From positions 630,001 to 662,000 of the forward strand of contig NZ_CP026606.1 in the NCBI RefSeq assembly GCF_002945325.1: a stretch of DNA of 32,000 bases. Direction: 5' to 3'. Position 1 is the stretch's first letter; each line of letters begins with the position of its first letter. The position numbers were made by a program, and so were the translations under genes. Below are positions 1 through 23,528 of the stretch, in pieces. Under the pieces are notes generated by a model, which was given only the letters and a program-made list of their open reading frames with translations, was not told where the DNA came from and made no database searches. The stretch is from Methanococcus maripaludis. Its GTDB lineage: Archaea > AGJL01 > Methanococci > Methanococcales > Methanococcaceae.

Positions 1-1825
1 CCTGATCGTCAAGTCCATAGTAATAAAGTTCTGCAATTTGGACCCAGTCCTTGGCTTGTGATTCATAATACCATGCTTTATTTTTTCCCTCTATAATTGA
101 ATCCGTATTAGTTAAAGAAATAGCAGTTAACGAATCAATTGCCTTTTGGTAGTAATCAATAGCTTTTTGGTAAGCATTTTCCGAGTCCGTGTCATCTGCA
201 AAATCTCTGTTACTTTCAAGTTCTGCAATTTTTGACAGATAGTCCGCTACATCCCCCTCAAACATTGCCTCTGTTTGTTCTTTTTCTGATGCGGTGAAAT
301 CCCCATCTGCAAGGAAACTATCTATCAATTTTGAGTGGTCTGTAATTACGAAAACATAATTTGACCTAATTGTTATTCGAGGCTTTGAAATAGCCCATAC
401 TGGAAAAGACCTATCAGGATTATCTTCGGTTTGATATATTCTTCCTGAAACTAAAAGGAATGGATATATAGCGACTGTATCCTCATCTGAGTTATAGTCG
501 AGGATCGTGTTAATTACTCCAACCTTTGTAAGGTCCGGTAAAATTCCATCTGATTTTGAATCTGTTGAAATTGTTGAAGTTCCATCTGCATGATAATTAA
601 TTGCAACTAATCTGTAAGATACATTTTGAATTTTCATATCAGTTGAATAAGTATCAAAATATTCAGGATAACCGATAATAGTTACAGAATACCCGGCAGG
701 ATTGTTTAATTCATGAATCATCGAGGATTTAATAGTCATAACAATGTTTGAAGTAGCACCGTTTGCATCGGCCTTAAAAGCAAACATTTCGTCATCGTAT
801 TGATCCCTATATTCAGAACCTAAACCGCCCTCTTTTCCTTTGTGGTCCACGATTCCATCAAGGATTGATTGAGTAGCAGATGTTGTATGCCTATATGAAA
901 TGTAAGATGTGTTCTTCCAGGGGTCATCTTTTCCATCATCGTCATCATCCCATCTAAGAGGCTTATCTTCTTCTTCCTCAGGGGTATGTTCCTCTAAATC
1001 CCATCGGGCCCACTCTGCGTTTTCTTTCCAAACGACTAAATTATGGTTAACTTCGGTGTATATTTCAAAATTTTCTACATCCGCAGTAACAAGAGCGTTT
1101 AAATCATTTAAATCTAAATTTCCGCCCTGAGTCATAACAGCGACTTCCGATGCGTAATCATCAGGAACTTTTAAGATTGCATCAAAAGTATGTTCCTGGT
1201 TTTCAGAAGTAATATTCAAATCAGTTAGTTCATATTTGGATACAACAGTTCCCCCTTGCATAACTTTAAAAGTTACTGAATTTATCTCAGTATGGCCGAT
1301 AACATCTATTGTATATTGATCGTCCCCATAATCGATAACATCTTCGGGGAACATTGAATCTATTGAAGGAGTTTTCACAGTTATTCTAACTGGAAAGACT
1401 GAAAAACCACCTATTTTATCAGGGGCGTTAATTACTTCTTGAACCAATCCCCCAACTTCATATCCTACACAATAATAAGAAACCATATCAGATTTTATCT
1501 CATCTAAAATCCTTTGTGTGGAGTTTGAGGCTTCGATAATTGATTGTTCCTTATCCCCCATTACCGCCTCGGCAGAGGATTGCTCGGTTTCGTTTTGTGT
1601 TCCATTAAACACAATATCTGAGGGCGTATCATCTGTTGTGTTACTTGGCGGTAAATCAACAGTATTTCCACCAGTTAACCAGTCCCATATATCAGTAAAT
1701 AAAGTTCCGGTTCCAGTTCCACCGCCATCATCTATTCCCACATATCCGGTTCCATCCGCAAATACTGAAAATGGAGAAATTAAGACCAGAAAAAGGATAA
1801 ATAAAGATTTAGTTTGTAGCTTCAT
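1..1825 (-). CDS. Secreted protein, 3'-truncated by the window edge (more than 608 aa); not in the supplied ORF track
   Basis: Hand translation of the minus strand from ATG at 1825-1823 (GGGTGG RBS 7 nt upstream) stays open to base 1. N-terminus MKLQTKSLFILFLVLISPFSVFADG is signal-peptide-like. An acidic patch reads EEHTPEEEEDKPLRWDDDDDGKDD. The start overlaps the end of the upstream ORF by 17 nt. Confidence 0.7.
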   Translation of the reverse strand, partial: MKLQTKSLFILFLVLISPFSVFADGTGYVGIDDGGGTGTGTLFTDIWDWLTGGNTVDLPPSNTTDDTPSDIVFNGTQNETEQSSAEAVMGDKEQSIIEASNSTQRILDEIKSDMVSYYCVGYEVGGLVQEVINAPDKIGGFSVFPVRITVKTPSIDSMFPEDVIDYGDDQYTIDVIGHTEINSVTFKVMQGGTVVSKYELTDLNITSENQEHTFDAILKVPDDYASEVAVMTQGGNLDLNDLNALVTADVENFEIYTEVNHNLVVWKENAEWARWDLEEHTPEEEEDKPLRWDDDDDGKDDPWKNTSYISYRHTTSATQSILDGIVDHKGKEGGLGSEYRDQYDDEMFAFKADANGATSNIVMTIKSSMIHELNNPAGYSVTIIGYPEYFDTYSTDMKIQNVSYRLVAINYHADGTSTISTDSKSDGILPDLTKVGVINTILDYNSDEDTVAIYPFLLVSGRIYQTEDNPDRSFPVWAISKPRITIRSNYVFVITDHSKLIDSFLADGDFTASEKEQTEAMFEGDVADYLSKIAELESNRDFADDTDSENAYQKAIDYYQKAIDSLTAISLTNTDSIIEGKNKAWYYESQAKDWVQIAELYYYGLDDQ

Positions 1826-2027
1826 CTTGTATCCACCCTAATTTAAGCGATATTTGGTATAATCCCCAAATTACGAAACCACCAAGTAGTGCAGTCAAGT
1901 AAAAAATATTTCCTTCAAGAGTTGCAGGTCCTGAATTGTAAGATTGAGTAATAGTTACTGCATCTGCAGTAACTGAATTCATTAATAATCCAAGGCCAAG
2001 AATGAAAGTTGAAATTTTTAATCTCAT
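1809..2027 (-). CDS. Small secreted/membrane-anchored protein (72 aa)
   Basis: Signal-like N-terminus (MRLKISTFILGLGLLMNSVTADA) and a hydrophobic segment (IFYLTALLGGFVIWGLYQI). ATGA start/stop overlap with the upstream 752-aa ORF. Confidence 0.55.
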   Translation of the reverse strand: MRLKISTFILGLGLLMNSVTADAVTITQSYNSGPATLEGNIFYLTALLGGFVIWGLYQISLKLGWIQDEATN

Positions 2028-4294: not shown

Positions 4295-4879
4295 TTATTC
4301 TTTAAATATAATTCCGCAGAACCAAGCACCGATCACTAATAAGCCTATCCAAATGTAATTTTCATACATATTGAAAAATCGAGTAAATTGTTCGGTTAAT
4401 CCATCACCGGTGATAATTCCAACAATAGCCCCATCATCTGAGGAGTCATCTGTTGTATCATCGGTAGTGTTTGTATCATCTAAAGTTGAATCTGTTGTAT
4501 TAGTATCATCAGTAGTTGTATTCTCTTCTACGGTTTCGTTAACCGTATCATCAGTAGTGTTAGTTTCTTCGGTAGTGTTAGTGTCTTCTACGGTTTCGTT
4601 AACAACCGTTTCAATCATAGTTATTGATATTGAGGAATTTTCATCGATAATCTCGAATGTATCCGTTAAATTATCGTATCCATCTTTAACAAAAGTTAAA
4701 GTTACGTTTCCAGCATCTAAAGTGATAGTTTCTGAATTGTTAAAAACTCCAATTGACGCACCATCTTTTATGATGTCTACTTCATCCACGTTTGACGTGA
4801 AAGGAATTGCTAAAGCAGATACAGAACCTACCAATAGCAAAAGCAGTATTCCAAAAATACCAAATTTTTTTACGTTCAT
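4295..4879 (-). CDS. Secreted, C-terminally anchored protein with one PEGA-like domain plus a Thr/Asn/Asp-rich stalk (194 aa)
   Basis: Signal-like MNVKKFGIFGILLLLLVGSVSALA. Motif GNVTLTFVKDGYDNLTDTF is the same as in the 752-aa protein. Low-complexity stretch NTTEETNTTDDT... C-terminal TM segment IWIGLLVIGAWFCGIIF. Confidence 0.8.
   Translation of the reverse strand: MNVKKFGIFGILLLLLVGSVSALAIPFTSNVDEVDIIKDGASIGVFNNSETITLDAGNVTLTFVKDGYDNLTDTFEIIDENSSISITMIETVVNETVEDTNTTEETNTTDDTVNETVEENTTTDDTNTTDSTLDDTNTTDDTTDDSSDDGAIVGIITGDGLTEQFTRFFNMYENYIWIGLLVIGAWFCGIIFKE
4524..4603. repeat. Exact 20-nt repeat (tcttctacggtttcgttaac) at 60-nt spacing inside the stalk-coding region
   Basis: Copies read directly at 4524-4543 and 4584-4603. 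They encode the NETVE(E/D) starts of two roughly 20-aa Thr/Asn-rich units. Confidence 0.8.
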
Positions 4880-4890: not shown

Positions 4891-5265
4891 TTAATCATTA
4901 AGAGCTAATACAATTATTGCAAGTGCATTTACGACCAAAACAGCCTTTTGGAGTGTTGGGTCTGATAAATAGCCTATTGAACCGGCTAAGAATGAATATG
5001 CCAAAAATGAAACTGCACAAACTAAAATAGAGCCAACCTCTTGGGTTTGGTAACTGTATTTGTGGGCATTTCTTCTACCTGAAAGGAGAACCATTGCAAG
5101 ACCTAAAGGTCCGACTATTGTATAGAATGTTTGGCTAACGAATTGAATGTTTAATAACATCATTTTGCCAACCAAACCAAGCATAAAGAGAAAACCGCCC
5201 GTCATTTCGTAACGGTCAATCCTTTTTCCAGCTATAAAGATTTCATCACTCATTTTATCACTCAA
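4891..5265 (-). CDS. Small polytopic membrane protein (124 aa)
   Basis: Several hydrophobic helices (GGFLFMLGLVGKMMLL, IVGPLGLAMVLL, ILVCAVSFLAYSFLAG, AVLVVNALAIIVLAL). 8-nt overlap with the upstream ORF. Confidence 0.7.
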   Translation of the reverse strand: MSDKMSDEIFIAGKRIDRYEMTGGFLFMLGLVGKMMLLNIQFVSQTFYTIVGPLGLAMVLLSGRRNAHKYSYQTQEVGSILVCAVSFLAYSFLAGSIGYLSDPTLQKAVLVVNALAIIVLALND

Positions 5266-5644
5266 ATTTCAAAATTGTTAAGCAAACAACGTCAATTATT
5301 AAATATATCATTCCAGTTCCTGAAACGAGTAATCCACCAATTAAAGGAATCTGTCCGATTGTTGCGGTAATTATTGCTTCCGAAAGAGTCAATAATAGAA
5401 CAATCATAGCACAAATTTTTACAGGACCTATTCGTTCAGTTGTTCCAAAGAGAATAGCCCCGATGACAACGCAAGAGGCCCAGCCAAATGTTGAATAAGC
5501 CGATGCAACCAAAGGACCAACACCGGGAATAAAACTCAAGAGATTAATTCCTTGACCTGAAAAAGTAATTACAATCCCAGCGAAATAGAGAAGTAAAGTT
5601 CCTTTTTCTTCGTCAATAAGTCCAAAAAGTTTTTCCTGAGTCAT
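5258..5644 (-). CDS. Small polytopic membrane protein (128 aa)
   Basis: Hydrophobic throughout (LLLYFAGIVITF, WASCVVIGAILFG, ICAMIVLLLTL, GGLLVSGTGMIYLIIDVVCL). Tightly packed in the operon. Confidence 0.7.
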   Translation of the reverse strand: MTQEKLFGLIDEEKGTLLLYFAGIVITFSGQGINLLSFIPGVGPLVASAYSTFGWASCVVIGAILFGTTERIGPVKICAMIVLLLTLSEAIITATIGQIPLIGGLLVSGTGMIYLIIDVVCLTILKFE

Positions 5645-5653
5645 GATATCATC

Positions 5654-5863
5654 TTATTTGTATTTCGAGTATAACAGGTATCCAACAACAGCCAATAATA
5701 TCATAACGGCAAGACTCACGTTATTTGGTTCCCACATACTGAAAAATGGGAACTGCAACAGATAGTTAATAATCTGCAATTTTAAATCTGCAAATGGGGT
5801 AAAACACCCAGCTAACACAAGCAGGACAACTCCGGCAAGTGCGTATTCCTCTTTTTTAGTCAT
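5654..5863 (-). CDS. Small membrane protein (69 aa)
   Basis: Two hydrophobic helices. ATGA overlap with the upstream ORF. Confidence 0.6.
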   Translation of the reverse strand: MTKKEEYALAGVVLLVLAGCFTPFADLKLQIINYLLQFPFFSMWEPNNVSLAVMILLAVVGYLLYSKYK

Positions 5864-6087
5864 TTAACCACCAGTTTACCAGTTGGATTTTTAAAAGCAT
5901 ACATAAAGGCAAGAACAACCAAAATTACCGCCCCATATGTCGAAAGTACCTCATACGGAATCCCTGAGAGTAGCGGAAAGCAACTCACAAGTAATGCAGT
6001 AAATTTTTGTTGAACAAGCGAAGTGTTTATCAAAATTCCCCCAGCAAGGAGAAAAATTGAAACCTCGTTAAAATCTACTTTTGACAC
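5860..6087 (-). CDS. Small membrane protein (75 aa), first gene of the surface-module operon
   Basis: GTG start with AGGTG 8 nt upstream. Two or three hydrophobic helices. Preceded by a 195-bp intergenic gap. Confidence 0.6.
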   Translation of the reverse strand: MSKVDFNEVSIFLLAGGILINTSLVQQKFTALLVSCFPLLSGIPYEVLSTYGAVILVVLAFMYAFKNPTGKLVVK

Positions 6088-6282: not shown

Positions 6283-6942
6283 TTATTTCTTCTTAGAACC
6301 TAATTTAGCGGATAATTCGACCTTTATATTATCAACAATACGATCGAACTCATCACTTCTGGTATTATGTTCTTTATTTTTCATTTCCATAAAGTATTCA
6401 AAATCAGGGGCCTTAACTGAAAGATTGAATATAGGGGTCATAATCGTTCCTTTTCTTAAAATAGTTGCAGGAATAAAATATTCCCTTATTCTCTTATCTA
6501 CACCCTTTTCTTTTGGAGTTGTAGCAAAAACTAAAGGAATCTCAGTTCTAATGAACTGTAAAAGTTTTCCAAATTCTTTAGAAACTTTTGTTCCAAAATC
6601 CCTGGCATCAAACCATTTTCCGATATCTTCAATAACTAACATGTCGCATCTTCTAAGATCCGCAGGAGATAAAGCTAATACTGTATCATAACCTAATTTA
6701 TCAAAATAATTACATAAAGCAATAGAGTGAGTTGTTTTCCATGAACCTCTTCGTCCAGTTAGTAAAAAGGCAGTATGCCCTTTTATTGGCTTATTCATTT
6801 TCAATATCATTTCGGGGTCTTTTTCCATAATAGAAGGCTTTGCTAAACTATAATCAAATCCCAAAATATTATCTAACTGATGCGAATCTTTGTTACCAAA
6901 ATCATAACTTCCAAACAGGCCCATGTTAACTATAAAACTCAC
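6283..6942 (-). CDS. P-loop NTPase (219 aa)
   Basis: Walker A-like LLTGRRGSWKTT and Walker B-like CDMLVIEDIG. GTG start; an alternative ATG lies at 6924. Confidence 0.8.
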   Translation of the reverse strand: MSFIVNMGLFGSYDFGNKDSHQLDNILGFDYSLAKPSIMEKDPEMILKMNKPIKGHTAFLLTGRRGSWKTTHSIALCNYFDKLGYDTVLALSPADLRRCDMLVIEDIGKWFDARDFGTKVSKEFGKLLQFIRTEIPLVFATTPKEKGVDKRIREYFIPATILRKGTIMTPIFNLSVKAPDFEYFMEMKNKEHNTRSDEFDRIVDNIKVELSAKLGSKKK

Positions 6943-6945: not shown

Positions 6946-7218
6946 TTACTCTTCTTTATTCATACTAAATTCTTCAAGCATTGCTTGAAACTCTTGCCAG
7001 GTTTTTTCATCCCCAATCATTGAAAGGAGAAGAGGATATTTCACAGGTTCAAAAGCAACAATCCTTTTAGCCCTTTGAACGAGCCAGTATCCATTTAATT
7101 TAGGATTACATCTCGCCATAAAGAACATGAGAACATCGGTATTAGGTGTTAGATTCTCCGGACCCACTATCTGATTGATTAGTTTCCTCATTTCCAGGTC
7201 CATCTCTGGATTCATCAT
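6946..7218 (-). CDS. Hypothetical protein (90 aa)
   Basis: ORF track entry. Its 5' end overlaps the upstream ORF by up to 77 nt, so the true start may be an internal Met. The stop is 3 nt before the NTPase start. Confidence 0.55.
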   Translation of the reverse strand: MMNPEMDLEMRKLINQIVGPENLTPNTDVLMFFMARCNPKLNGYWLVQRAKRIVAFEPVKYPLLLSMIGDEKTWQEFQAMLEEFSMNKEE

Positions 7219-8650
7219 CTATTTTCACATCCATCGATTTATTTTGTTCTTCGGTTTTTTTCAGTAAATCCTTAATATTTCGCATTGCAAGAGGATATAC
7301 ATCTCTCAAGACTTGTTCCATTGCAAGTGCCATAAGTTCTTGAGCTTCAACTCCCATAAGACCGGCTTTTTCATAGTACATACCAGCCCATTTTTTGACT
7401 GATTCGGTTATTTTTCCTAAGTTATCAGATAAAAACACGCATTCCGCAGTCGTTTTATCCATAATACAGGATTTATTTATCCAAATCTCACCGGTTACTT
7501 TGCCTACTTTTCCCATGAATAGAGTTTTTACCCACCTAAATAAATTATAAACCGTTTCTCCTATCGATTTAGATTGTTTAAGTGCTTGTTCAGATTCTTC
7601 AAGGTAATCTATAACTTGATAATCAGTTATAATTTTACATTTTCCTTTATAGTCTTTTAGAGTAGAAACGAAGTTCCATTCATCGACTTCATCATATTCT
7701 ATATGCTTGTAAGTCTTATCGTGCCAAAGCACTCTTTTTTTCTCTCCATCTTGTTCGTATGGAACAGAAATATCGTACACGGTTTTATTTGCAAAATCAA
7801 TACGAATATATGTTAGTAGCTTCTTAGTGTGGACGTAATAAGCCACCCGCGATGCAAGATACGGTATTAGAAAGAGATAGAAGTTATAATAAGACCAGAT
7901 GTATTTAAAATCCCAGGCAAATTTTAACCAGGGAATAGTTAAAGATTTTGAATTAAATACAATAAAATCTTTCCAGGCAGTTGCTTCAAATGGAAAACCA
8001 TACTTATAAAACAAGAATAATAACGCCAATCCCACATTTAAACGAGTAATAGGTAGGATTGATTGTTTAAACCTGATTAATAAGTTTTTTTCGATATATT
8101 TGTTTTTTACATGAAACATGACTAAAACAAACAAGATAATCGAAAGGATTGCACGGTCCCAGCCCATTTTTGAAATGGCCCCTTTTGTTGCATATAACAA
8201 CTCATCGGGTAAATTTCCAGACTGTAAAACATCTTCAATTTGACAGAATTTATTATCATAGAGGAAAATATAATTTATATATCCGTAACTTGTGTATGGA
8301 TTTGTAAAATTATATTTGTGAGTTCCTGTATCTATTCTAACCTCTGAAAACCCCGATGCACCTCTTGTGTATTTGTACTTATATCCATCATAGACAGATA
8401 CCCACTTAGGATTTCCTGAATTAGTTATTTCAAATATCAAGGTCTTAGAAGTCTTATTATAGTAATAAGAATCTATTACCATATCAGAAAATGAAGTTAA
8501 ACTTCCTTTTGTCATATATTCCGCAGTTAACGGATCCGCAGGTTCTATATTTTCCGCATTCACAAAAGGAATGCAGCAAATAATTAATAACAATATTATG
8601 ATTTTATTCGGCATATGTTTCATAAAACAACCTACCATCGTTATTCTCAA
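7142..8650 (-). CDS. Large membrane protein with an extracytoplasmic N-domain, TM helices and a cytoplasmic C-domain (about 490-502 aa)
   Basis: Signal-like KIIILLLIICCIPFVNA. TM helices AILSIILFVLVMF, LNVGLALLFLFYKYGF and NFYLFLIPYLASRVAYYV. The likely start is MKHM or MPNK, not the first Met in the track. Confidence 0.75.
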   Translation of the reverse strand: MRITMVGCFMKHMPNKIIILLLIICCIPFVNAENIEPADPLTAEYMTKGSLTSFSDMVIDSYYYNKTSKTLIFEITNSGNPKWVSVYDGYKYKYTRGASGFSEVRIDTGTHKYNFTNPYTSYGYINYIFLYDNKFCQIEDVLQSGNLPDELLYATKGAISKMGWDRAILSIILFVLVMFHVKNKYIEKNLLIRFKQSILPITRLNVGLALLFLFYKYGFPFEATAWKDFIVFNSKSLTIPWLKFAWDFKYIWSYYNFYLFLIPYLASRVAYYVHTKKLLTYIRIDFANKTVYDISVPYEQDGEKKRVLWHDKTYKHIEYDEVDEWNFVSTLKDYKGKCKIITDYQVIDYLEESEQALKQSKSIGETVYNLFRWVKTLFMGKVGKVTGEIWINKSCIMDKTTAECVFLSDNLGKITESVKKWAGMYYEKAGLMGVEAQELMALAMEQVLRDVYPLAMRNIKDLLKKTEEQNKSMDVKIDDESRDGPGNEETNQSDSGSGESNT

Positions 8651-15512: not shown

Positions 15513-15550
15513 CCCCATTTTTAAATTTTAATAACCATTCCCATTAAATT

Positions 15551-15586: not shown

Positions 15587-15606
15587 AGAGAATATAATTT
15601 TAAAAA

Positions 15607-15888: not shown

Positions 15889-15990
15889 TTACTTCTTTTT
15901 ATTATATTTCACGATAGTTTCTTTGTTTGTTCGTGTAACCGTTCCAATCTTTTTATTTTTTCTAATTATCAGAGTCGTTTTTTTCGTCAT
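15889..15990 (-). CDS. Possible 33-aa highly basic peptide
   Basis: Hand translation: MTKKTTLIIRKNKKIGTVTRTNKETIVKYNKKK. AGGAGGT lies 6 nt upstream of the ATG. Its stop abuts the next ATG. Confidence 0.3.
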   Translation of the reverse strand: MTKKTTLIIRKNKKIGTVTRTNKETIVKYNKKK

Positions 15991-16560
15991 TAAATAACCT
16001 CCTTTATTTTAAGTATAAGCTTCGCTAACTTGTTAAACAACAAAATTAGGCGTAATTAGTCCCCAATATAATGAAAACTAATGAGTAATGTATAAATACA
16101 AATTTTCAAAAAGAGATATACGGGATCGATCAAAATCCGCATATCAGAATATGTCTTTTTACAATGGCATCACCTCTGATGTAAATACCTTTTTTAGATA
16201 ATTTTATAGGTATTTGATTTTCTGATAAGATAAATATTATGTTAATAATTTATATACTTGTCTTTAGTGCCCTATATATACTAAACTAAACAAGACGATA
16301 GAGCTTTTTTCAATAACTGCTAAATTGCATATGAATAATGCTTTTTGCAGTAATCTACTTTTAACCCCAATCTAATTAAAAAAAGAGTTATTTAAATATT
16401 ATCGTAAAATGTAAAGTAGATTAAAAATTCAAAAAATAGCCTTCTTTTTTAATTTAAAGCATATTACCCTCATTAAATTCAATTAAAATAATTATTCTTC
16501 GATAAAATATTAAACTTGCCATTCTGGTTTTAACATTAAATTTACAACATAATTATAAAA

Positions 16561-16596
16561 TTATATATACGATTTTTAATAAATGGATATCCATTT
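16561..16596 (+). promoter_or_regulatory. TATA-like box (TTATATATA) plus a perfect 16-bp palindrome AAATGGATATCCATTT upstream of the nuclease-like gene
   Basis: TATA-like box at 16561-16569. Palindrome at 16581-16596, at about the expected transcription start site. GAGGGGA RBS, then ATG at 16619. Confidence 0.5.
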
Positions 16597-16618
16597 GATT
16601 TAAAAAAGAGGGGAGTAT

Positions 16619-17167
16619 ATGTTAGGAATTATCAAATCAGCAGTTTCAAAACTTATGGATGCATTTACTAAAAAATCAAGATCTGAAAAAATCGATGAAA
16701 TTAGAGAAGAAATTAAAAAAGATCCAACATCATTTGAAAAGGGAACAGCTTTTGAATTATGTTGTTTGGACATATTTTCAGAAAAGGACTTTGACTTACT
16801 TGAAATGACACATAATCCGGATTCTGCAAATGGCAGATTTGTTAAAAGTGATTTAAACCCGGATTTACAGTTTAAAAATAAAAAAACAGATAGTGTTTTT
16901 AGTGTTGAATGCAAATACAGAAGCAGTTTATATAAAGGGGCTTTTAGCTGGGCTAAAAATAAAGCTCAAGCTGACAGATACAGAGAATATGAAAAAGAAA
17001 ATGAAATTTCCGTATTTGTTGCAATGGGGTTAGGTGGAACTCCTGAAAAACCAGAACAAATTTTCTTAATGCCTTTAAAAGAAATAAAATATAATTCACT
17101 CTACCCTAGTGTTTTAAACGATTATGAAATAAAAGAAGCTAAAGATGTATTTAAAATATTAAACTAA
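16619..17167 (+). CDS. PD-(D/E)xK (restriction-endonuclease-fold) nuclease-like protein (182 aa)
   Basis: GTAFELCCLDIF helix, then NPDLQF ... SVFSVECKY, giving the D ... E-x-K arrangement typical of Mrr/restriction-endonuclease cores. Confidence 0.65.
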   Translation: MLGIIKSAVSKLMDAFTKKSRSEKIDEIREEIKKDPTSFEKGTAFELCCLDIFSEKDFDLLEMTHNPDSANGRFVKSDLNPDLQFKNKKTDSVFSVECKYRSSLYKGAFSWAKNKAQADRYREYEKENEISVFVAMGLGGTPEKPEQIFLMPLKEIKYNSLYPSVLNDYEIKEAKDVFKILN

Positions 17168-17217
17168 TCCAAATAATTAATTATTTTTTTAATTTTTACA
17201 GTTATCTGGTGGATAAA

Positions 17218-17619
17218 ATGGACGGCCCACATAAAATGCTCATTTGTATAGTTGTAATTCTCTCAGCATTCAGTCCTTTTATAGAAGATGCAATTTACAA
17301 CTATTCTCATGACGTTAATATAGAAGAAATCAGGTTTTCATACCATCCAAATAGTGAATATTTTAATGGAACAAGCGGTGAAATGGATGAAAACGGAACT
17401 TTAAGGTTAATTGTTACACCTACCGATAAATTTAGAAATTTAACGTATGATGAACAGGTTAAATGGATGAATCGGGCAGGAAATGCATTAAGAGACGATG
17501 CAATTTTAAAAAATACAATTGAAAAGGATACTCCAGTATTTGTAACATTTGAAAGCGAGTGCTATCAAGACGGAAAAGACTGTAAAATAGATTATTTTGG
17601 AAATTGGAGTTTTGAATAA
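17218..17619 (+). CDS. Small membrane-anchored/secreted protein (133 aa)
   Basis: GGTGG lies 5 nt before ATG 17218. N-terminal hydrophobic segment MLICIVVILSAFSPFI. Lies 50 nt downstream of the nuclease-like gene. Confidence 0.55.
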   Translation: MDGPHKMLICIVVILSAFSPFIEDAIYNYSHDVNIEEIRFSYHPNSEYFNGTSGEMDENGTLRLIVTPTDKFRNLTYDEQVKWMNRAGNALRDDAILKNTIEKDTPVFVTFESECYQDGKDCKIDYFGNWSFE

Positions 17620-17627
17620 ATTTTGAT

Positions 17628-17663
17628 TTAAATTACTTTTTTTAAATTGATTGAAAAAAGAAA
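17628..17663. repeat. 36-nt direct repeat, copy 2; putative bidirectional terminator
   Basis: ttaaattactttttttaaattgattgaaaaaagaaa. It sits between convergent stops (17619 and 17698). Weaker similarity continues about 25 nt further in both copies. Confidence 0.8.
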
Positions 17664-17697
17664 TATTATTCAATTCTAAAAATTAAAATTAGGTAAA

Positions 17698-18720
17698 TTA
17701 AACTCTTACCTTAGAGTGAGTTTCATATTTATTTCCCGAATGTTTAGATTCCAGATAATCATCATCCAGTATTTTAATAACTGTAGCATAGTTTTTGCTA
17801 TTAATTATTAAATTATCATTCTCATCAAATTCAATTTCATCTAATTTAAATTCCGATTTTGTATCAGATATTGAATTATGATCCCAAGTTTTGTAACTTT
17901 TAGTATTCAATACCGTAGCAAATTTTTTAGTAAGATCTTTATTACGTTTGGATAAACTTACCAGTACTTCAAGATTATCTTTATCGATAATTTTTTGCTC
18001 AACCAATTTATCTTTTTTATCATCAATTTCTTTTTTGTATCCTTCATGGAAATCAAAAAATAATTCAATACCATTTTTGTTAAATACATACATAATTTCA
18101 GAGATATCTTCAGAAGCCATCTCTTTACCCTTATAAATCATTCCATCAAATTTATCTTCAAGTGCAAAAATACTATCTTCGATTTTATCGAATTTACCAT
18201 TATTTCTATTAAATACCATGTTTAAAGTGCCTTTTCCAAGCAATTTAAGAGGAGAATGTTTTTTAATAAATATCAAATTTTTAGATATTTCTTTTTTGTT
18301 ATCAAAGATATCAATGGTTACAATATATCCCCAAATTTTTTTTATGTTTTTTAATGCATTGCTATTTAAAAACTCGGGATCCCCGTAAGTTTTATCATAA
18401 ATATCTTCAAAATGGGGAATATCTTCTGCAGACATGACTTCAATAACTTTTTTATCATATTTCGCCATTGGAGAATATTTTGGGTAAAAATATTCATCAC
18501 CACATCGAATTCCCACTTCAAGTTGGGCAATTTTCAATAATTCCTGCTCTATTGCGTGATTTGAATTAAATTCTGTTCTCCAAATTTTATGTGTTATCAA
18601 TTCTTTCTTTTTAGTTCGTTCTACAAAATTCAAAGTTATATTACCCAAATTAAGATTTTCGTCTTTTAACATCTTGTATATATCAGGCATTTTTAATATA
18701 GTAGCGACATTTATTTCCAT
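17698..18720 (-). CDS. Cytoplasmic 340-aa protein, second gene of a two-gene operon (KwaB/DUF4868-like by architecture only)
   Basis: ORF track entry. Starts 3 nt after the stop of the 4-TM gene. Lys/Glu/Asp-rich. No catalytic motif recognised. Confidence 0.7.
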   Translation of the reverse strand: MEINVATILKMPDIYKMLKDENLNLGNITLNFVERTKKKELITHKIWRTEFNSNHAIEQELLKIAQLEVGIRCGDEYFYPKYSPMAKYDKKVIEVMSAEDIPHFEDIYDKTYGDPEFLNSNALKNIKKIWGYIVTIDIFDNKKEISKNLIFIKKHSPLKLLGKGTLNMVFNRNNGKFDKIEDSIFALEDKFDGMIYKGKEMASEDISEIMYVFNKNGIELFFDFHEGYKKEIDDKKDKLVEQKIIDKDNLEVLVSLSKRNKDLTKKFATVLNTKSYKTWDHNSISDTKSEFKLDEIEFDENDNLIINSKNYATVIKILDDDYLESKHSGNKYETHSKVRV

Positions 18721-18723
18721 AAT

Positions 18724-19401
18724 CTACACTTCTTTAAAGATATTATTTCCATACATATGTTTTAATTGTAATTTATCATCGATTTTCAGATCTTTTTTAG
18801 TGATTATCAAAGCATCTGAATAAGTTTTAGGATTTGGTGACATATTGGCTCCTTTTTTAATGGATGCACGATACATTTTGTATCCAAAAGACGTTAAAAC
18901 AGGATTTATAAACACTAAATCAGTAGAAATTGCTACCGAACGCATAATTCCTAAAAATAATATAAAAGCTAAAATATTTGTGAATTTACATAAATCAAAT
19001 CCCATAAATGCAATCATATATGGCACAAAATAATCCAGCGCATCTTTTGTACGATTTTCAAAATCTACCACCACATATTCTTTTGCAGAAGTAGTTCTTG
19101 TACAATACCAAAATAAAGCCCAAAATATCAATGTAGGAGTAAAAAATACAATAATAAAAACTATTCCAATAGTTAAAGGAATTGAAACATTTCCCATACC
19201 CACAGTTTGTGGAATTGTGGAAGTACAGTTTATAAACGGCATTTCTATACAAGAGCACGTTTCTGTAAAATAAATTGCGGAAAATATCAGAAATAATGGC
19301 AAATAAGAAAACATGAATAAACCGGTATTTATGGTCCAGCCTATACTCCAGCCTATAAGTTTATCCCAACGATTTTTTTGATTTTTCCCCTCAGTCCCCA
19401 T
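18724..19401 (-). CDS. Four-TM membrane protein (225 aa), first gene of the two-gene operon (KwaA-like by architecture only)
   Basis: Hydrophobic helices LFMFSYLPLFLIFSAIYF, IPLTIGIVFIIVFFTPTLIFWALFWY, YFVPYMIAFMGF and ILAFILFLGIMRSVAI, then a soluble roughly 50-aa tail. A TATA-like catatatat lies about 45 nt upstream. Confidence 0.7.
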   Translation of the reverse strand: MGTEGKNQKNRWDKLIGWSIGWTINTGLFMFSYLPLFLIFSAIYFTETCSCIEMPFINCTSTIPQTVGMGNVSIPLTIGIVFIIVFFTPTLIFWALFWYCTRTTSAKEYVVVDFENRTKDALDYFVPYMIAFMGFDLCKFTNILAFILFLGIMRSVAISTDLVFINPVLTSFGYKMYRASIKKGANMSPNPKTYSDALIITKKDLKIDDKLQLKHMYGNNIFKEV

Positions 19402-19521
19402 GAAAACACCTAAATTGTACCGAAGAGGTCTTTATCTCTTCATATATATGATAGTTTTCATGACGTAATATTTTAAGAATTAGTTGTACGATTGTAAAAA
19501 TAATTTTAAGATAGCATTAAT

Positions 19522-20451
19522 TTATCGAGGACCGATAAATCTATCCCCATTATAGTGTATCATGTGATCAGGATTTTCTGAAATCCAAACTTCAGTATCC
19601 CATGCAATATCTGCAACATATTTTTTGAAAGTAGCTTTATCCCTAAAGCAGCTCACATATATTTTTCCACACTTACAGTCTTCAAGCATTTCTTCAAGTT
19701 CATAGTACCGTTTATCTGAAACTGGGCCATGAGAAGTAACTGCTTCAATTAAATAAATCCAGTTATTCTTTTCATCATACAAAACAACATCTGGAAGCTT
19801 ATCATGTTTAGTCATTGGAATTCCAAGCTTTTCAAGTTCTTCATCCAATTTATAAAGGTTTTTATGTGCGGTATCCCCAACATAAAGAACTTTTGAACCA
19901 CCTGCAAATCTAGGTCCAAATTCTTCAATAATTTCTTTTTGTAATTCATTATGTTCTCCAGAAGAAAATTCAAGTTCCGTATCATCAACTTTAACTGAAA
20001 TTTTATGAATTTCCCTAATTCCCTGATATTTTTCAGAAAGTGAAGTTTTATTCTCTAAAAACCATTCAACAGACTTTTCAAAATCATCAGTTTCGTATGT
20101 TTTTAAAACTTCTAAAAATTCAGGAGTTAAGGAATAAACTGTTTTACCACTGTTTGTAGGTCTTTTTGGATCATCTCGATTCCTTTCAACAATTCCAGCA
20201 TGTTCAAACTGGTGTATTGTCTGCCGCCTTATTGTTTCCCTGCTATTTTCAGCATAAGTATATCCATAATTTTCAGAAATAAACAATAAAATATCATGAA
20301 TTCTAACTAAATTATCTTCTGAATCTTTCCAATCACTGTTTTCTTGGATATTTGCAAGTGCTAAAAGAGTATATGCACTTCTATTATTTTGCTGCTTCAC
20401 TGGAAGCTCAAATTTCTTTAAAATAGTTAAAGCTTCGTCTAACTTTCCCAT
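19522..20451 (-). CDS. Type II restriction endonuclease, BsuBI/PstI-like (309 aa from ATG 20451; alternative TTG at 20466)
   Basis: Lies immediately downstream of the methyltransferase. PD...E core LPDVVLYDEKNNWIYLIEAVTSHGPV. N-terminal wHTH-like region. The size matches R.PstI-class enzymes. Confidence 0.6.
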   Translation of the reverse strand: MGKLDEALTILKKFELPVKQQNNRSAYTLLALANIQENSDWKDSEDNLVRIHDILLFISENYGYTYAENSRETIRRQTIHQFEHAGIVERNRDDPKRPTNSGKTVYSLTPEFLEVLKTYETDDFEKSVEWFLENKTSLSEKYQGIREIHKISVKVDDTELEFSSGEHNELQKEIIEEFGPRFAGGSKVLYVGDTAHKNLYKLDEELEKLGIPMTKHDKLPDVVLYDEKNNWIYLIEAVTSHGPVSDKRYYELEEMLEDCKCGKIYVSCFRDKATFKKYVADIAWDTEVWISENPDHMIHYNGDRFIGPR

Positions 20452-20468
20452 ACTACCCTTCCACAAAA

Positions 20469-21977
20469 TTAGATATTAAATATATTATTGACAATATCAT
20501 TACATTTATCAACACTTAAATCATTTTCTTTTAGAATTAAGTCTCCAATTCTGACAATGAGTTCTTTTTCGGGAAGAGGCATTGAATTTACTTCTGTAGC
20601 ATTTACCTGAGTAGATCCATTTACAATTCTATAATATTTATCTAAGATATCACAATTAAAGAGAGCATAGAGACCAAATAATTCGTTTAATTCCATATTA
20701 CCTGATTCTTTCACAATATAATTAAGATGATTTTCAAATCCAATCTGTGGATAATTAAATTCTTTTGAAGAATAAATTGCAGCTTGAAGCCTTCTTTTCT
20801 CTTCTTTTGAAGTAAACCGTTTCAATAATAAATAATCCTTATTTTTCAAAAGTAACTTTTTAGATTCAGAATTATTCAAAATATACGGGGGTTTTCCGTC
20901 CTTTGTAACTGGAAATCTTATTAATCCGTCATTAAAATTATGTAACCACAAAAGAGGAACAGTTTCATTCGAGGGTTCATTTTTTAAATATTCTAATGAT
21001 CGAAAATCGACTACAGGCCCGGTTTTTAACTTATATCCTAGTTTAACTAAATTATACTTCCAGTTTGACATTAAATTCATGATTTTTACGTCTTCTTCGT
21101 TTGTAGGTAACAATATGAATTTATTTTCATTTTTCGTTATTACTGTATCATAAGGCATGTAAATTTGAAAAATATTTTTGGATAAATCAGAATCTGTACT
21201 TTCTGAAATACACATCATATCTTCATTTAATCTTGATTTTACAGCTTTTAAAATAATTGTTTCCTGCAATACCTGATCGTTTCCAAACACGTTTTTCCTT
21301 GAAACAAACAAATGTATTCGAGAAATATTTACATTTTCAAGGAACCATGTTCTAAATTTTTTAAAATAAAGACCCGATGTAAAGCTTCTTGGATTAATAA
21401 ATATGAACTCTCCATTTTCCTTTAACAATTTTAAAGCCATTGCCATGAATAAAAAATAAATATTGGGCTGACCGTGCACAATAGAATTCATAGCTACAGC
21501 TTCTTCGCAAGACTTGCTTATTTTTTTGTAAGGTGGATTAGAGATTACAAGATCGTAACGCCCAACAGAGTCTGAATTCCAGTTATCTACATTCAATGTT
21601 ACAAAATTGCCATGTATAATTTTATATGTGAATTTTATGGGCGAATTTTCTAATTTATGTTTAATATATTCCATTGATTTAGTTAAAATGGGTAAAACAT
21701 CAGAATCTACTTCATAAAGATCAATATGGAGTCTTTTTAAATTTTTATGGGTTTTAAATTTATCAACAAGTGCTGTCGCTAAAATACCGGTGCCTGAACC
21801 ACAATCTAAAATATTTAATTCTTCAAAATTTTCATAGTCGCCGGATAAACTAGCCATAAAGTCGGCAACAGCTGCAGGTGTAAAAAATTGGCCTATTTTC
21901 TTCCTATCTTTCTTAGACTTCTTTTCCAAATATTTATTCGTGTATTCTTGGACTTCATTTACAAGTGATTCCTGCAT
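20469..21977 (-). CDS. N6-adenine DNA methyltransferase, gamma class (M.PstI/Eco57I-like, 502 aa)
   Basis: SAM motif ILDCGSGTGIL precedes the catalytic motif DLVISNPPYKK. FFTP near the N-terminus. Confidence 0.9.
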   Translation of the reverse strand: MQESLVNEVQEYTNKYLEKKSKKDRKKIGQFFTPAAVADFMASLSGDYENFEELNILDCGSGTGILATALVDKFKTHKNLKRLHIDLYEVDSDVLPILTKSMEYIKHKLENSPIKFTYKIIHGNFVTLNVDNWNSDSVGRYDLVISNPPYKKISKSCEEAVAMNSIVHGQPNIYFLFMAMALKLLKENGEFIFINPRSFTSGLYFKKFRTWFLENVNISRIHLFVSRKNVFGNDQVLQETIILKAVKSRLNEDMMCISESTDSDLSKNIFQIYMPYDTVITKNENKFILLPTNEEDVKIMNLMSNWKYNLVKLGYKLKTGPVVDFRSLEYLKNEPSNETVPLLWLHNFNDGLIRFPVTKDGKPPYILNNSESKKLLLKNKDYLLLKRFTSKEEKRRLQAAIYSSKEFNYPQIGFENHLNYIVKESGNMELNELFGLYALFNCDILDKYYRIVNGSTQVNATEVNSMPLPEKELIVRIGDLILKENDLSVDKCNDIVNNIFNI

Positions 21978-21998
21978 AATTAGACCCCATTTTAAAAA

Positions 21999-22886
21999 TC
22001 ATTTCTTATTATTCATAACTCGTAAATACTCTTTTTTCCTTGATTCCTTGTTCGAGTGAACGTATCCCGAAGTAGTATTCAAGTTTGAATGACCCATTAT
22101 TTTTGAAAGAACAATCAAGTTCATTTCATCTTCACAGGCTAAAGTTCCAAAGGTATGCCTGAAAACGTGTGGAGTAACATCAAAAGGAATTTTATCTTTT
22201 GTAACTTCCTTTAAATAGTCTCTAAATTTATCTATTGCGTAATTTGTAACCTTTTTACCATTCTTAGTTACAAAAAAGCAGTCTGTTTTTAAATTTAAAT
22301 TCTCTCTGTATTCGATATAATTTTTAAGATATCCTAAAAGTTCGTTATCGATAAATACATATCTATCTTTTCCGCCTTTTCCATCCCGAATGTAAATTGA
22401 GCGGTCTTCTAAATCTACATCATTTAAAAGTATGTTTTGAAATTCAGAAATCCTAACACCCGTTTTTAAAAGAAATAGTGTGTAAACATAATAATCATAG
22501 TCCATTACTTTTGCTAAAACTGTTTGAACTTGTTTTTCACTTAAATTCAATCTCTCCTTTTTTTCAAATTTGAGAGTTTTTACAAAGGTTTTCACTGGAT
22601 TTTTAAATAAATACTGATGTTCTACCGCCCATTCATAAAATCGATTAACATCATTTAATCTTTTGATTTTAGTATTCTTATTTACAGGCCTTCCATCTTC
22701 GGCTTTGTTATATCCATTATAGAAGTTTATTGCATCTTCTATTGTGATATTTTCCCAGGTTTTATTTTCGTCAAAATATCTTGTAAATGCCTTTAAACCG
22801 GATTTATAGTATTTTACAGTATTTTGACTGTGACCTGAATGAAATTTTAAGAATTTTTCAACAAGTTTTTCTGAAGATTCATCCAT
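21999..22886 (-). CDS. Tyrosine recombinase/integrase (XerC/D-phage integrase family, 295 aa)
   Basis: Catalytic residues in order: GVRISE (R), GKGGKDR (K), HVFRHT (HxxR), GHSNL (H), SGYVH (Y). Confidence 0.9.
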   Translation of the reverse strand: MDESSEKLVEKFLKFHSGHSQNTVKYYKSGLKAFTRYFDENKTWENITIEDAINFYNGYNKAEDGRPVNKNTKIKRLNDVNRFYEWAVEHQYLFKNPVKTFVKTLKFEKKERLNLSEKQVQTVLAKVMDYDYYVYTLFLLKTGVRISEFQNILLNDVDLEDRSIYIRDGKGGKDRYVFIDNELLGYLKNYIEYRENLNLKTDCFFVTKNGKKVTNYAIDKFRDYLKEVTKDKIPFDVTPHVFRHTFGTLACEDEMNLIVLSKIMGHSNLNTTSGYVHSNKESRKKEYLRVMNNKK

Positions 22887-22894
22887 GGTATCCC

Positions 22895-23443
22895 TTAATT
22901 TCTAGTAATTATTTCGTATTCTTCACCCATTGGAAGCATTACTTCCCTAAGTCTAAAATATACTTTACCGTCTTCAACTCTTTGCTCTACAGTGGCCCCA
23001 AATTCTCTATGATTTGCTAAAATATATTTGAAAAGGTTAATTTTACGATCATCAGTTGCATAATTTAGTACAACAAGAATTTCATCCCAAGCTGTCCATA
23101 CATCGTCATCTTTACTTCTTAAATAATCCTTAATTTTTACGTACATATCTTGAATTTCAGTATCAGTATAAATTGATACTAAATAATCAGATAGATCTTG
23201 TAAAGCAGTTGTAACTTTATCGTTTGATTCTTTTGTTGCAAATTGTGCATTTTCTAAAAGTGAGATAATTTTATCTAATTTTGAATCGGTACTTTCGTTA
23301 CCTTTTTCATAAATTCTATCTACCATGTTCATGCAAAATTTTGCATATGATCCAACACTTGAAAAACCCTTTTCTTTTGCCATCTCTTGATACTTTTTAC
23401 GTTCACTATCATCAGTACAATATACTTGCAAAAGTACAGCCAA
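22895..23443 (-). CDS. Hypothetical protein with a possible N-terminal ribbon-helix-helix domain (182 aa); candidate regulator or excision factor
   Basis: LLQVYCTDDSERKKYQEMAKEKGFSSVGSYAKFCMNMV has a strand-helix-helix pattern. TTG start with GGGGTGG upstream. Lies 8 nt upstream of the integrase gene. Confidence 0.5.
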   Translation of the reverse strand: MAVLLQVYCTDDSERKKYQEMAKEKGFSSVGSYAKFCMNMVDRIYEKGNESTDSKLDKIISLLENAQFATKESNDKVTTALQDLSDYLVSIYTDTEIQDMYVKIKDYLRSKDDDVWTAWDEILVVLNYATDDRKINLFKYILANHREFGATVEQRVEDGKVYFRLREVMLPMGEEYEIITRN

Positions 23444-23528
23444 AAAACCACCCCTTTATATATCAAATCCTGTTTAATATATTGGATGAAATGAATATTT
23501 AATTATATATTAATATAATATATAAACC

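Follow-up and report, generated by a model that had tools for sequence, protein, structure and literature searches.

We analyzed a stretch of 32,000 nucleotides from Methanococcus maripaludis (contig NZ_CP026606.1, positions 630,001 to 662,000; referred to as the window, position 1 being its first base). The window contains 23.5 kb of an integrative element, which is 27,044 bp long and whose left end lies 3,515 bp to the left of window base 1. From position 1 to approximately 23.45 kb the genes are densely packed, mostly on the minus strand, and the leftmost open reading frame (ORF) runs off the window. The GC content is 0.33-0.38 over 1-13 kb and 0.24-0.30 over 13.5-23.5 kb. Further to the right we found chromosomal genes, namely a radical-SAM gene (23657-25030), a gene for a PIN protein, mtd (26136-26969) and others. 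An earlier reading made from the letters of the window (below, the sequence-only reading) had described a tyrosine integrase at the right end with about 45 packed ORFs to the left of it, mostly without recognisable families, and a switch to housekeeping genes after 23.6 kb. Our annotation agrees with this description: the integrase gene was identified at 21999-22886 on the minus strand (Pfam Phage_integrase, E 1e-31), and the majority of the ORFs had no match in Pfam, PHROGs or NCBIfam.

Limits of the element and its attachment site

The left end of the element was reached with contigs from the Logan read archive, which we found via the 752-aa protein of the element. The overlap with the window was identical over 4,414 of 4,414 bases and the extension added 7,977 bp. 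Read leftwards, it contains the rest of a gene for a t26-6p-like protein (686 aa), a gene for a 72-aa protein, a gene for a 685-aa protein with ArdC-N, MPTase-PolyVal and methyltransferase parts, and 1.1 kb of non-coding DNA. Past this non-coding stretch lies the left chromosomal flank with DNA ligase, PHP, amidohydrolase, GGACT and PolB genes. The element has the radical-SAM gene on one side and the DNA ligase gene on the other.

A shared-word search of the two junction regions revealed a perfect 19-bp direct repeat, CTCGATGATGATTGTCATC, which marks both ends of the element. The chance expectation for a 19-mer match between the two regions is approximately 1e-6, and no further copies with up to 3 mismatches were present elsewhere in the window. 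Two features of the right junction are used in the following text:

23530-23548, plus strand: core of the right attachment site (attR), exact 19-bp repeat CTCGATGATGATTGTCATC, whose attL copy is found 3,515 bp to the left of window base 1
23530-23615, plus strand: chromosomal target, an 86-nt gene resembling a C/D-box small RNA (sRNA), assigned from box layout, fold and Rfam matches

Using the flanking radical-SAM protein, we found the empty site in three M. maripaludis assemblies (GCA_013761225.1, GCA_014207315.1 and SRR12395637), in which the radical-SAM gene is followed by 506 bp and then by the DNA ligase gene. When these were aligned with the occupied site, identity with the attL flank stopped and identity with the attR flank started exactly at the single 19-bp core, and the flanks were near-perfect. 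Because of the 19-bp repeats and this switch of identity at the core, we conclude that 27,044 bp were inserted site-specifically, and we regard an integrative element with these boundaries as practically certain. The insertion is recent, and sister strains are without the element.

The sequence-only reading had expected a mobile element of at least 23.5 kb next to mtd with a right boundary at 23528, and had proposed a leftward extension of the contig, a search for a repeat of the 23444-23650 region and a search for an empty site in close Methanococcus genomes. The direct repeats and the empty sites established its integrative element. The extension reached the left end 3,515 bp beyond the window, the core was found at both ends, with attR starting within 2 bp of the expected boundary, and the empty site was present in the three assemblies. 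A gene block fixed at this locus in all genomes, which that reading had named as the refuting case, is contradicted by the empty sites.

The circle formed by excision is expected to carry the attP junction ...TATAAACCA-CTCGATGATGATTGTCATC-ACAAGAAATATAT... and the restored attB junction is expected to read ...AGAAATGG-core-CCTGCTGAC.... We found neither attP nor an additional attB when species-representative genomes, IMG/VR and JGI metagenomes were scanned with the 19-bp core; these scans gave chance matches only, in unrelated contigs, mostly of high GC. In the left flank of the empty site, approximately 150-170 bp left of the core, there is a short AACGAAATT repeat with strain-variable copy number, visible as a 9-bp indel between sequences L004 and L006. 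Similar ACGA(A/T)T-type repeats (AGACGATTTTTAGACGAATAAAACGA) occur just within attL, and repeats of this type may be arm-type binding sites of the integrase.

There were no tRNA genes in the window or in the left extension of approximately 8 kb. Judged by its sequence, the attachment site is the 5' end of the C/D-box sRNA-like gene, not a tRNA gene. The predicted RNA is closed by a terminal stem (CUC/GAG) and contains, in this order, a C box AUGAUGA (23534-23540), a 12-nt guide, a D' box CUGA (23553-23556), a 13-bp internal hairpin, a C' box AUGAUGA (23591-23597), an 11-nt guide and a D box CUGA (23609-23612). It shows the C, D', C' and D boxes, guides (here 12 and 11 nt) and terminal stem expected of an archaeal C/D-box RNA; its internal hairpin of 32 nt is atypical for such RNAs. 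The att core corresponds to the first 19 nt of the RNA and covers the terminal stem, the C box and the first 8 nt of the guide. When 301 nt of the junction were compared permissively with Rfam, six of six matches with E <1 were to C/D-box families. The best of them, Pyrococcus sR55, shares an almost identical D' guide (GUCAUCCCUG), and its score (24 bits, E 6e-4) lies below the gathering score of 35 bits, which weakens the assignment. The predicted complementarity of the guides to rRNA or tRNA involves UUGUCAUCCCUG and AUACAGGGUUA.

Since the sRNA-like gene is intact in the empty-site strains, we consider it chromosomal. It is intact also in strain C5 and in a C6-like strain, where only the hairpin loop, a single guide base and the base that follows D' are changed. 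Integration restores the sRNA at attR, and element DNA replaces the sequence upstream of it. The attB sites named in a review of archaeal tyrosine recombinases (PMC8371274) are tRNA genes, protein-coding genes and intergenic sites, with no mention of sRNA genes, and our full-text literature search found no paper combining sRNA-gene and attB terms. A C/D-box sRNA gene serving as attB would constitute a new kind of archaeal attachment site.

In a relative from Methanococcus voltae (L053:4337-4424, minus strand, GCA_017875395.1) the integrase-proximal end lies directly against the 5' end of a C/D-box-like sequence that has the same arrangement of boxes, guides and internal hairpin. Its Rfam matches are weak and confined to C/D-box families (snoPyro_CD, 18.9 bits). 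This may be a second attachment site of the same kind, a putative one, as the integrase-proximal junction alone was inspected. The corresponding junction of another relative (L059), whose integrase is 35% identical, showed no C/D-box motif. We rejected on this basis the view that C/D-box targeting is general for this type of element; it may be confined to one integrase clade. In strain C5 an additional gene for a 454-aa mannose-1-phosphate guanylyltransferase-like protein is located between the radical-SAM and sRNA genes (L019:7901-9265). It is absent from the strain studied here and from the empty-site strains, therefore the neighbourhood is variable outside the element as well.

Genes of the element and its relatives

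We annotated the following features within the window:

2-1837, continuing 221 bp past the left edge, minus strand: t26-6p-like large protein, C-terminal 612 of 686 aa; N-terminal signal/transmembrane segment and C-terminal transmembrane anchor
1809-2027, minus strand: 72-aa membrane protein between the two large proteins; two hydrophobic segments, conserved in the relative L027
2024-4282, minus strand: t26-5p-like 752-aa protein; signal peptide, PEGA/Ig-like repeats, C-terminal transmembrane anchor
4295-4879, minus strand: 194-aa secreted, transmembrane-anchored protein; 5p-like N-terminal domain (hmmsearch 1e-8 to canonical 5p), transmembrane segments 7-25 and 174-192
4891-6087, minus strand: four small membrane proteins of 124, 128, 69 and 75 aa with hydrophobic segments
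6283-6942, minus strand: 219-aa AAA+/P-loop NTPase assigned to the fusellovirus B251/His1 ORF16 ('DnaA-like') family by PHROG 5484, hhalign and hmmsearch
6946-8948, minus strand: proteins of 90, 502 and 114 aa upstream of the ATPase; synteny in all relatives
8967-10917, minus strand: block of small ORFs containing a 254-nt direct duplication
10901-12277, minus strand: 458-aa candidate replication initiator with a C4 zinc ribbon (AlphaFold2/Foldseek)
12234-13569, minus strand: head of the operon, a 69-aa DUF2080 protein (Pfam DUF2080 2.5e-8) followed by proteins of 91, 148 and 138 aa; order kept in all relatives
13706-14071, plus strand: divergent winged-helix (ArsR/MarR-type) regulator (Pfam HTH_5 7e-9, MarR_2 and others)
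14154-17619, plus strand: cargo proteins of 452, 182 and 136 aa, and a 93-aa ORF on the minus strand
17698-19401, minus strand: Kiwa system, KwaB (340 aa) and KwaA (225 aa, membrane), from Pfam and PADLOC
19522-21977, minus strand: type II restriction-modification (RM) system, BsuBI/PstI-family endonuclease and Eco57I/N6-type methyltransferase, from Pfam and PADLOC
21999-22886, minus strand: tyrosine integrase, XerA/XerC/XerD-like (Pfam 1e-31), with an N-terminal SAM-like domain
22895-23443, minus strand: 182-aa protein beside the integrase; position conserved in relatives, no family match

The 752-aa protein gave weak Pfam matches only, to PEGA, DUF3244 and Phage_tube_C, and is probably an envelope or adhesin protein. 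The 194-aa protein contains a linker rich in Thr, Asp and Asn. The 502-aa protein has a signal peptide, at least two transmembrane segments and an acidic C-terminus; together with its 90- and 114-aa neighbours it had no family match in Pfam, PHROG or NCBIfam, and the synteny of these three genes was seen in L027, L034, L053 and L056-L059. Within the block of small ORFs, the two copies of the duplication (254 nt, 95% identical, 9814-10067 and 10660-10913, 846 bp from start to start) encode paralogous basic proteins of 78 and 81 aa and flank four tiny ORFs.

The winged-helix regulator marks the border between core and cargo, where the GC content falls from approximately 0.34 to 0.24-0.30, and it is likely to form a genetic switch with the DUF2080 gene. 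Among the cargo, the C5 homologue of the 452-aa protein is named 'Apea-like HEPN domain-containing' in UniRef (a label only), and the 452-, 182- and 136-aa proteins gave no PADLOC, Pfam or NCBIfam match. In the 182-aa cargo protein (16619-17167, plus strand) we noticed by eye the motif E-C-K behind a stretch that looks like a beta-strand, a pattern that recalls PD-(D/E)xK nucleases. The Kiwa system consists of adjacent KwaA and KwaB (PADLOC 5e-26 and 6e-5, respectively; Pfam KwaB, DUF4868, 1e-18), and precomputed Pfam matches named both proteins. The RM genes were recognized both in Pfam (endonuclease 5e-61 and 1.8e-49, methylase 1e-18) and in PADLOC (REase_II 2e-109, MTase_II 8.5e-123). The integrase scored 165.6 bits with NCBIfam XerA_Arch, whose cut-off is 220 bits, and because of this lower score we do not regard it as the chromosomal XerA. 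The 182-aa protein beside it may be an excisionase or directionality factor. At the opposite end, the 685-aa ArdC-N/protease/methyltransferase gene beside attL was supported by Pfam and PADLOC methyltransferase matches.

Relatives of the element were found in strains C5, C6-like, X1 and Mic1c10, in several draft assemblies and in M. voltae, and synteny is kept in at least 7 M. maripaludis genomes and M. voltae. The shared backbone consists of the integrase, variable cargo and the winged-helix regulator, then divergently of DUF2080, 2-3 small genes, the candidate replication gene, small ORFs, the 114-aa gene, a gene for a membrane protein of approximately 490 aa, a gene of approximately 85 aa, the ATPase, small transmembrane proteins, the PEGA protein, 5p and 6p. 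The same core sequence with an integrase at least 90% identical was present in C5, in C6-like strains and in several contigs from metagenomes or read archives. Further relatives occupy other chromosomal sites. The relatives differ as follows:

C6-like strain (L034): same site; attL has the exact core, and a remnant of approximately 1 kb comes after it
L027: different chromosomal site; structural module of 93-97% nucleotide identity
X1, Mic1c10 and JACDUH strains: cargo is a type I RM system
JACDUL strain (L059): integrase 35% identical; cargo is AAA_15/21 ATPases
M. voltae (L053): integrase 56% identical; a KAP NTPase inserted inside the structural module

Cargo elsewhere includes a methyl-accepting chemoreceptor in C5 and AAA_15/AAA_21 ATPases in the C6-like strain. 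The comparison of sequences (window 13500-23500; L019, L051, L053, L056-L059) shows that the exchange of cargo is concentrated in the stretch between integrase and regulator. In the C6-like strain, the start of the extra DNA after the attL core (approximately 1 kb, L034:16960-18076) resembles the integrase-proximal end of an element and there is no second core, which suggests a decayed tandem insertion at one site.

Relation to pT26-2 plasmids and to spindle-shaped viruses

We compared the element with the pT26-2 family, using as canonical set the free plasmid pMEFER01 and the metagenomic element L035/L036. In the latter the order of genes is integrase, 4p, 5p, 6p, 7p ... 13p, a 471-aa DUF87 ATPase (14p) and 15p. 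Profile comparisons were performed with hhalign for 12 module proteins against 13 canonical families, with profiles from 3 elements of the present type on one side and from pMEFER01 and L035 on the other. Two homologues were identified. The 752-aa protein corresponds to t26-5p (BLASTP 5e-35 to the PEGA protein of pMEFER01; hhalign 100%, E 3e-53; hmmsearch 1.7e-87). The leftmost ORF corresponds to t26-6p (Pfam T26-6p_Ig-like_dom_2 1.8e-16, T26-6p_Ig-like_dom 1.4e-12 and PT26-6P_helical 8e-4; BLASTP 1e-31 to pMEFER01; hhalign 99.9% to canonical 6p). For t26-7p, 11p, 13p and 15p there was no BLASTP or hmmsearch match, and hhalign gave at most 4.2% for every pair with these shallow profiles, which may miss very remote homologues. 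The t26-14p ATPase (approximately 430-470 aa, HerA/VirB4-like) was not detected, the sole NTPase having 219 aa and matching t26-14p in the P-loop only (hhalign 0.9-24%; hmmsearch E 0.03-0.05).

The ATPase pointed to viruses. It matched PHROG 5484, 'DnaA-like replication initiation protein' (E 2.6e-8), and among 50,697 phage and archaeal virus records its best tblastn match was the 'DnaA-like protein' of Sulfolobales Mexican fusellovirus 1 (SMF1). When compared by hhalign with SMF1_0008 and His1 ORF16, it gave 96.7% with a 3-sequence profile and 98.0% (E 2.2e-13) with a 13-sequence profile, over 118 columns including Walker A, Walker B and downstream motifs. The hmmsearch values were 1.8e-11 for SMF1 and 2e-7 for His1. 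The PDB profile search gave generic P-loop matches only. The family is rare, with 11 relatives at E <=1e-3 among 1.84 billion representative proteins. By these sequence comparisons the 219-aa NTPase belongs to the 'DnaA-like' ATPase family of fuselloviruses and His1, not to t26-14p. The sequence-only reading had stated that the element has no recognisable capsid, terminase or conjugation ATPase genes. For Pfam, PHROGs and NCBIfam this stands; however, the small P-loop NTPase that it also mentioned turned out to be homologous to an ATPase of spindle-shaped viruses.

Other features of the module recall spindle-shaped viruses as well. The 69- and 75-aa proteins have the size and the layout of two hydrophobic segments that characterise major capsid proteins of these viruses. 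The order of the 752-aa protein, the 72-aa membrane protein and the 686-aa protein parallels PAV1 ORF676/140/678, and in spindle-shaped viruses of Thermococcales two conserved transmembrane-anchored multi-domain lectin proteins are core genes (PMC12934983). PHROGs and Pfam gave no match for the four small membrane proteins. According to published work, an M. voltae provirus, 'A3 VLP', contains both the PAV1 ORF180b/137/375 cassette and a primase of PolpTN2/PrimQH type. We rejected identity with it, since the present element has no PAV1 homologue and its 458-aa protein looks Rep_trans/TBP-like (TBP, TATA-binding protein) rather than primase-like.

The pT26-2 family is defined by seven core genes, and its members in Methanococcales use an attB at the 3' end of tRNA-Ser or tRNA-Leu genes with att sites of 50-60 bp (Badel 2019, PMC6972569). 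We detected two of the seven core genes, and the attachment site is a 19-bp core in a C/D-box sRNA-like gene. In the same study an element of strain C5, 'MmaC5_IP1', is entered as a 'remnant', and it is credited there with 2 core genes and 'no detectable limits'. Because strain C5 shares the core sequence and the early genes with the present element and has an integrase of at least 90% identity, the published remnant is probably a member of the present lineage. The relation to pT26-2 suggested in the sequence-only reading was thus partly upheld: it holds for 5p and 6p, and fails for five of seven core genes, for the ATPase family and for a tRNA attachment site.

These data could also be read as a divergent but full member of the pT26-2 family, in which five core genes are beyond detection and which would use the 'novel DNA/protein transfer apparatus' hypothesised by Badel et al. 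The 5p and 6p homologues fit this explanation, as do the many small transmembrane proteins, the membrane protein upstream of the ATPase (compare t26-13p before t26-14p; Soler 2010, PMC2926602), the type II integrase near att, which is found in Methanococcales members (Badel 2019, PMC6972569), and the copy in C5 at the same site, probably 'MmaC5_IP1'. It is opposed by hhalign values below 5% for all pairs but 5p and 6p, by the ATPase, which reaches 98% with the fusellovirus/His1 family and 24%, in the P-loop only, with t26-14p, by the differing gene order, by the lack of an MCM or t26-22p-type replication protein, and by an att site that is not a tRNA gene. The table of Badel et al., moreover, credits the C5 element with 2 core genes only (PMC6972569). 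We consider this explanation improbable. We think it very probable that the element represents a lineage distinct from canonical pT26-2 and equipped with a virus-type ATPase, a Methanococcus lineage that has two genes in common with the pT26-2 family.

Replication, transfer and comparison with known systems

We modelled the 458-aa protein with AlphaFold2 (pLDDT 77.8, pTM 0.70). In the Foldseek search of PDB the top match was the rolling-circle initiator 4CIJ (E 5.5e-5, probability 1.0, TM-score 0.23 for the query and 0.36 for the target), with TBPs next and scoring nearly as high; in BFVD the model matched TBP-like folds and Inoviridae proteins. The N-terminal region is predicted to have a TBP-like/Rep_trans-like fold, and the C-terminus forms a C4, TFIIB-type zinc ribbon. 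Homologues were found in Methanococcus only. Their invariant motifs are E218..E222, D-L-T-x-T-x-Y and Q-x-K-x-Y-Q-K..G..R-x-E-x-T, with the invariant tyrosine Y269; we take K-x-Y-Q-K ... R-x-E-x-T to resemble the active-site tyrosine region of Rep_trans. None of 13 homologues matched Pfam PF02486 (Rep_trans) at E <=1, and PLSDB plasmids gave no tblastn match. From the model, we see an even chance that the protein is a rolling-circle initiator.

Between the attL core and the ArdC/methyltransferase gene we found a GC-rich (0.40-0.58) non-coding region on the strand of that gene:

approximately 2,840-3,290 bp left of window base 1 (L003:7250-7700), minus strand: structured region of approximately 420 nt, with homologues at L034:16310-16760 (minus) and L027:17480-17880 (minus)

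Its identity across the three elements is 73-75%, and the consensus structure has 98 pairs in 19 helices. Cells of the alignment were paired in 91.5% of cases, compared with 30-46% in slid controls, and changes on both sides of a pair occurred in 24 pairs, compared with 1-5 in controls; none of 500 shuffles attained the observed values. Several loops are of cUUCGg type. There was no Rfam match. We see three candidate roles for the region: it could serve as a large non-coding RNA, as an extended leader in front of the anti-restriction gene, or as a single-strand replication origin.

On balance we favour, with fair confidence, the view that this site-specific integrative element is a chimera of pT26-2 surface proteins (5p/6p) and a spindle-virus ATPase, carrying defence cargo. 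According to our proposal, the XerA-like integrase beside attR, perhaps with the adjacent 182-aa protein, would catalyse integration and excision. The divergent pair of winged-helix repressor and DUF2080 protein would control one long operon, whose Rep_trans-like zinc-ribbon initiator would imply rolling-circle-type replication of the excised circle. The membrane/envelope module of the operon, comprising the 502-aa protein, the ATPase, the four small membrane proteins and three PEGA/Ig-like proteins with signal peptide and transmembrane anchor, may build a membrane-associated virus-like vehicle (a spindle-shaped or pleomorphic particle, or a vesicle) that takes DNA to new cells, with the 5p/6p proteins binding the host surface. 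The low-GC cargo bay (Kiwa, PstI-type RM and HEPN-like gene) would benefit the host and exclude rival elements, and the ArdC-N/protease/methyltransferase protein would shield incoming DNA from restriction.

Virus-like transfer is favoured because of the ATPase family and the envelope-like module. Several results weigh against it. The fusellovirus-type ATPase has no established function and hence is no proof of virion formation. The 69-, 75-, 124- and 128-aa proteins gave insignificant scores with SMF1 VP1/VP3, His1 VP21 and PAV1 ORF121 in hhalign and hmmsearch; for the 69- and 75-aa proteins hhalign reached at most 3%, and with such small alignments the positive control, SMF1 against His1 capsid protein, reached only 28%. 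No gene of the element matched PAV1. Scans of IMG/VR with the att core, the ATPase alignment and the 752-aa protein gave no relatives, and neither a free circular contig nor the attP junction was found. At the sequence level the zinc ribbon alone of the 458-aa protein matched a family (Pfam, PDB), and its Rep_trans assignment is tentative, drawn as it is from a modelled fold with low TM-scores (0.23 to 0.37) and from a presumed likeness of motifs. We therefore regard particle-forming, virus-like transfer as a serious possibility that falls somewhat short of probable. The stronger claim, that the element is an active temperate virus or virus-like vesicle-forming element, the first for M. maripaludis and of an undescribed lineage, appears unlikely at present.

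DNA could alternatively be transferred in single-stranded form through a cell-to-cell channel, similarly to conjugation, with the Rep_trans-like protein as relaxase, the membrane proteins as conduit, and ArdC with the structured region as the 'leading region', the part to be expressed first after entry into the recipient. The nicking role would presumably be that of ICEBs1 NicK or Tn916 Orf20, on a presumed link between Rep_trans proteins and relaxases. The Rep_trans-like fold of the 458-aa protein and the numerous membrane proteins would suit such a mechanism, and so would the fusion of ArdC-N with protease and methyltransferase, which is typical of conjugative plasmids, and the conserved structured region of approximately 420 nt, which lies directly upstream of the ArdC gene and adjoins attP. 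However, Pfam, PHROG and NCBIfam revealed no VirB4/TraG/FtsK/HerA-type translocase, relaxase family or pilin, the sole NTPase, an AAA+ protein of 219 aa, belongs to a family known from viruses, and the structured region, judged by its cUUCGg-type loops and its strand, suits an RNA better than a single-stranded DNA promoter. We assign this mechanism a low probability.

An immobile, decaying remnant kept by the host as a defence island, with the repeats as relics, is still less plausible. It would account for the absence of a free form, for the defence-type cargo that makes up nearly half of the in-window part, and for the listing of the C5 relative as a 'remnant' without detectable limits (PMC6972569). 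It is difficult to reconcile with two perfect 19-bp cores, empty sites with near-identical flanks, intact large ORFs, near-identical structural modules at differing chromosomal sites and synteny kept in at least 7 M. maripaludis genomes and M. voltae, and we regard it as very unlikely. The resemblance to pleolipoviruses proposed in the sequence-only reading was largely refuted, and we give a provirus of that kind hardly any weight: a secreted, transmembrane-anchored large protein, small membrane proteins and a small NTPase recall its core of spike, membrane protein and NTPase, and the ATPase partly matches VP8 (hhalign 73.7%, E 3e-5, 76 columns from Walker A to Walker B only; hmmsearch with HRPV-1 VP8, E 0.2), but it matches the fusellovirus/His1 family far better, and VP3, VP4, ORF6 and ORF7 of HRPV-1 and HHPV-1 had no match in the module (best hhalign 11%, in a signal-peptide region).

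Integrated elements of Methanococcales related to pT26-2 were already known, and one relative of the present element has probably been catalogued as a remnant. What we add are precise limits, a separate complete lineage with a different ATPase and replication protein, an attachment site in an sRNA gene and a structured region near attP. The function of the pT26-2 module, either a plasmid transfer machine or a viral remnant, has been unsettled since 2009-2010, and here two of its signature proteins stand beside a spindle-virus ATPase. If the virus-like interpretation of the element is true, the conserved pT26-2 module would be, or derive from, a virion or host-recognition apparatus; the integrase clade would specialise in 5' ends of C/D-box sRNA genes, as the 56%-identical M. 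voltae integrase also abuts one; and the region next to attP would be a previously unclassified structured RNA of approximately 420 nt. The 19-bp att site gives precise limits to the C5 'remnant', and probably to other elements listed with 'no detectable limits'. The variety of the cargo bay (Kiwa, type I/II RM, AAA_15/21 ATPases, KAP NTPase, chemoreceptor) shows movement of defence genes among methanococci. M. maripaludis has tractable genetics, and a natural carrier together with empty-site strains with near-identical flanks makes excision, particle release and transfer testable, as well as the parts played by 5p, 6p and the ATPase.

Compared with spindle-shaped viruses (Fuselloviridae SSV/SMF1, His1, PAV1, TPV1), the element shares an AAA+ ATPase of which SMF1_0008/B251 and His1 ORF16 are homologues, a cluster of small hydrophobic proteins (69-128 aa) ahead of two large, multi-domain, transmembrane-anchored surface proteins with a small membrane protein between them, a tyrosine integrase with a temperate lifestyle, and a genome size of the same order. 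It differs from them in having no demonstrable VP1/VP21-type capsid homologue, no PAV1 genes in common and an integrase that is not of the SSV (suicidal) type. Its surface proteins are of pT26-2 type, not concanavalin/lectin or VP4, and it is not known to form particles.

With the pT26-2 family (PMC2926602, PMC6972569) it shares the size range (17-38 kb), the host order, the layout of a conserved and a variable region, a non-suicidal type II tyrosine integrase with att near int, and a relative at the same site in C5. In contrast, five of seven core genes are undetected, the ATPase is a 219-aa fusellovirus-like protein and not one of approximately 450 aa of HerA/DUF87 type, and the candidate replication protein is Rep_trans-like where that family has MCM, MCM-like or t26-22p proteins. 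The att site is 19 bp in a C/D-box sRNA-like gene, compared with 50-60 bp at the 3' end of tRNA-Ser or tRNA-Leu genes. The arrangement of genes is likewise not the canonical one (5p, 6p, 7p ... 14p, 15p): in the present element 5p comes after the ATPase and membrane genes, and 6p has nothing behind it.

The 458-aa protein resembles Rep_trans initiators (4CIJ, Geobacillus RepDE; pT181 RepC/RepD) in its predicted TBP-like pseudo-dimeric fold, 4CIJ being the top structural match, and differs from them in lacking a Pfam Rep_trans match and in having an extra helical domain and a C-terminal zinc ribbon. Finally, like the tRNA-gene attachment sites of other archaeal elements (PMC8371274), the target is a small, conserved, structured RNA gene, whose one end overlaps the core and of which an intact copy is regenerated; unlike them, it is a C/D-box sRNA-like gene, the core lies at its 5' end and the sequence upstream of it is derived from the element.

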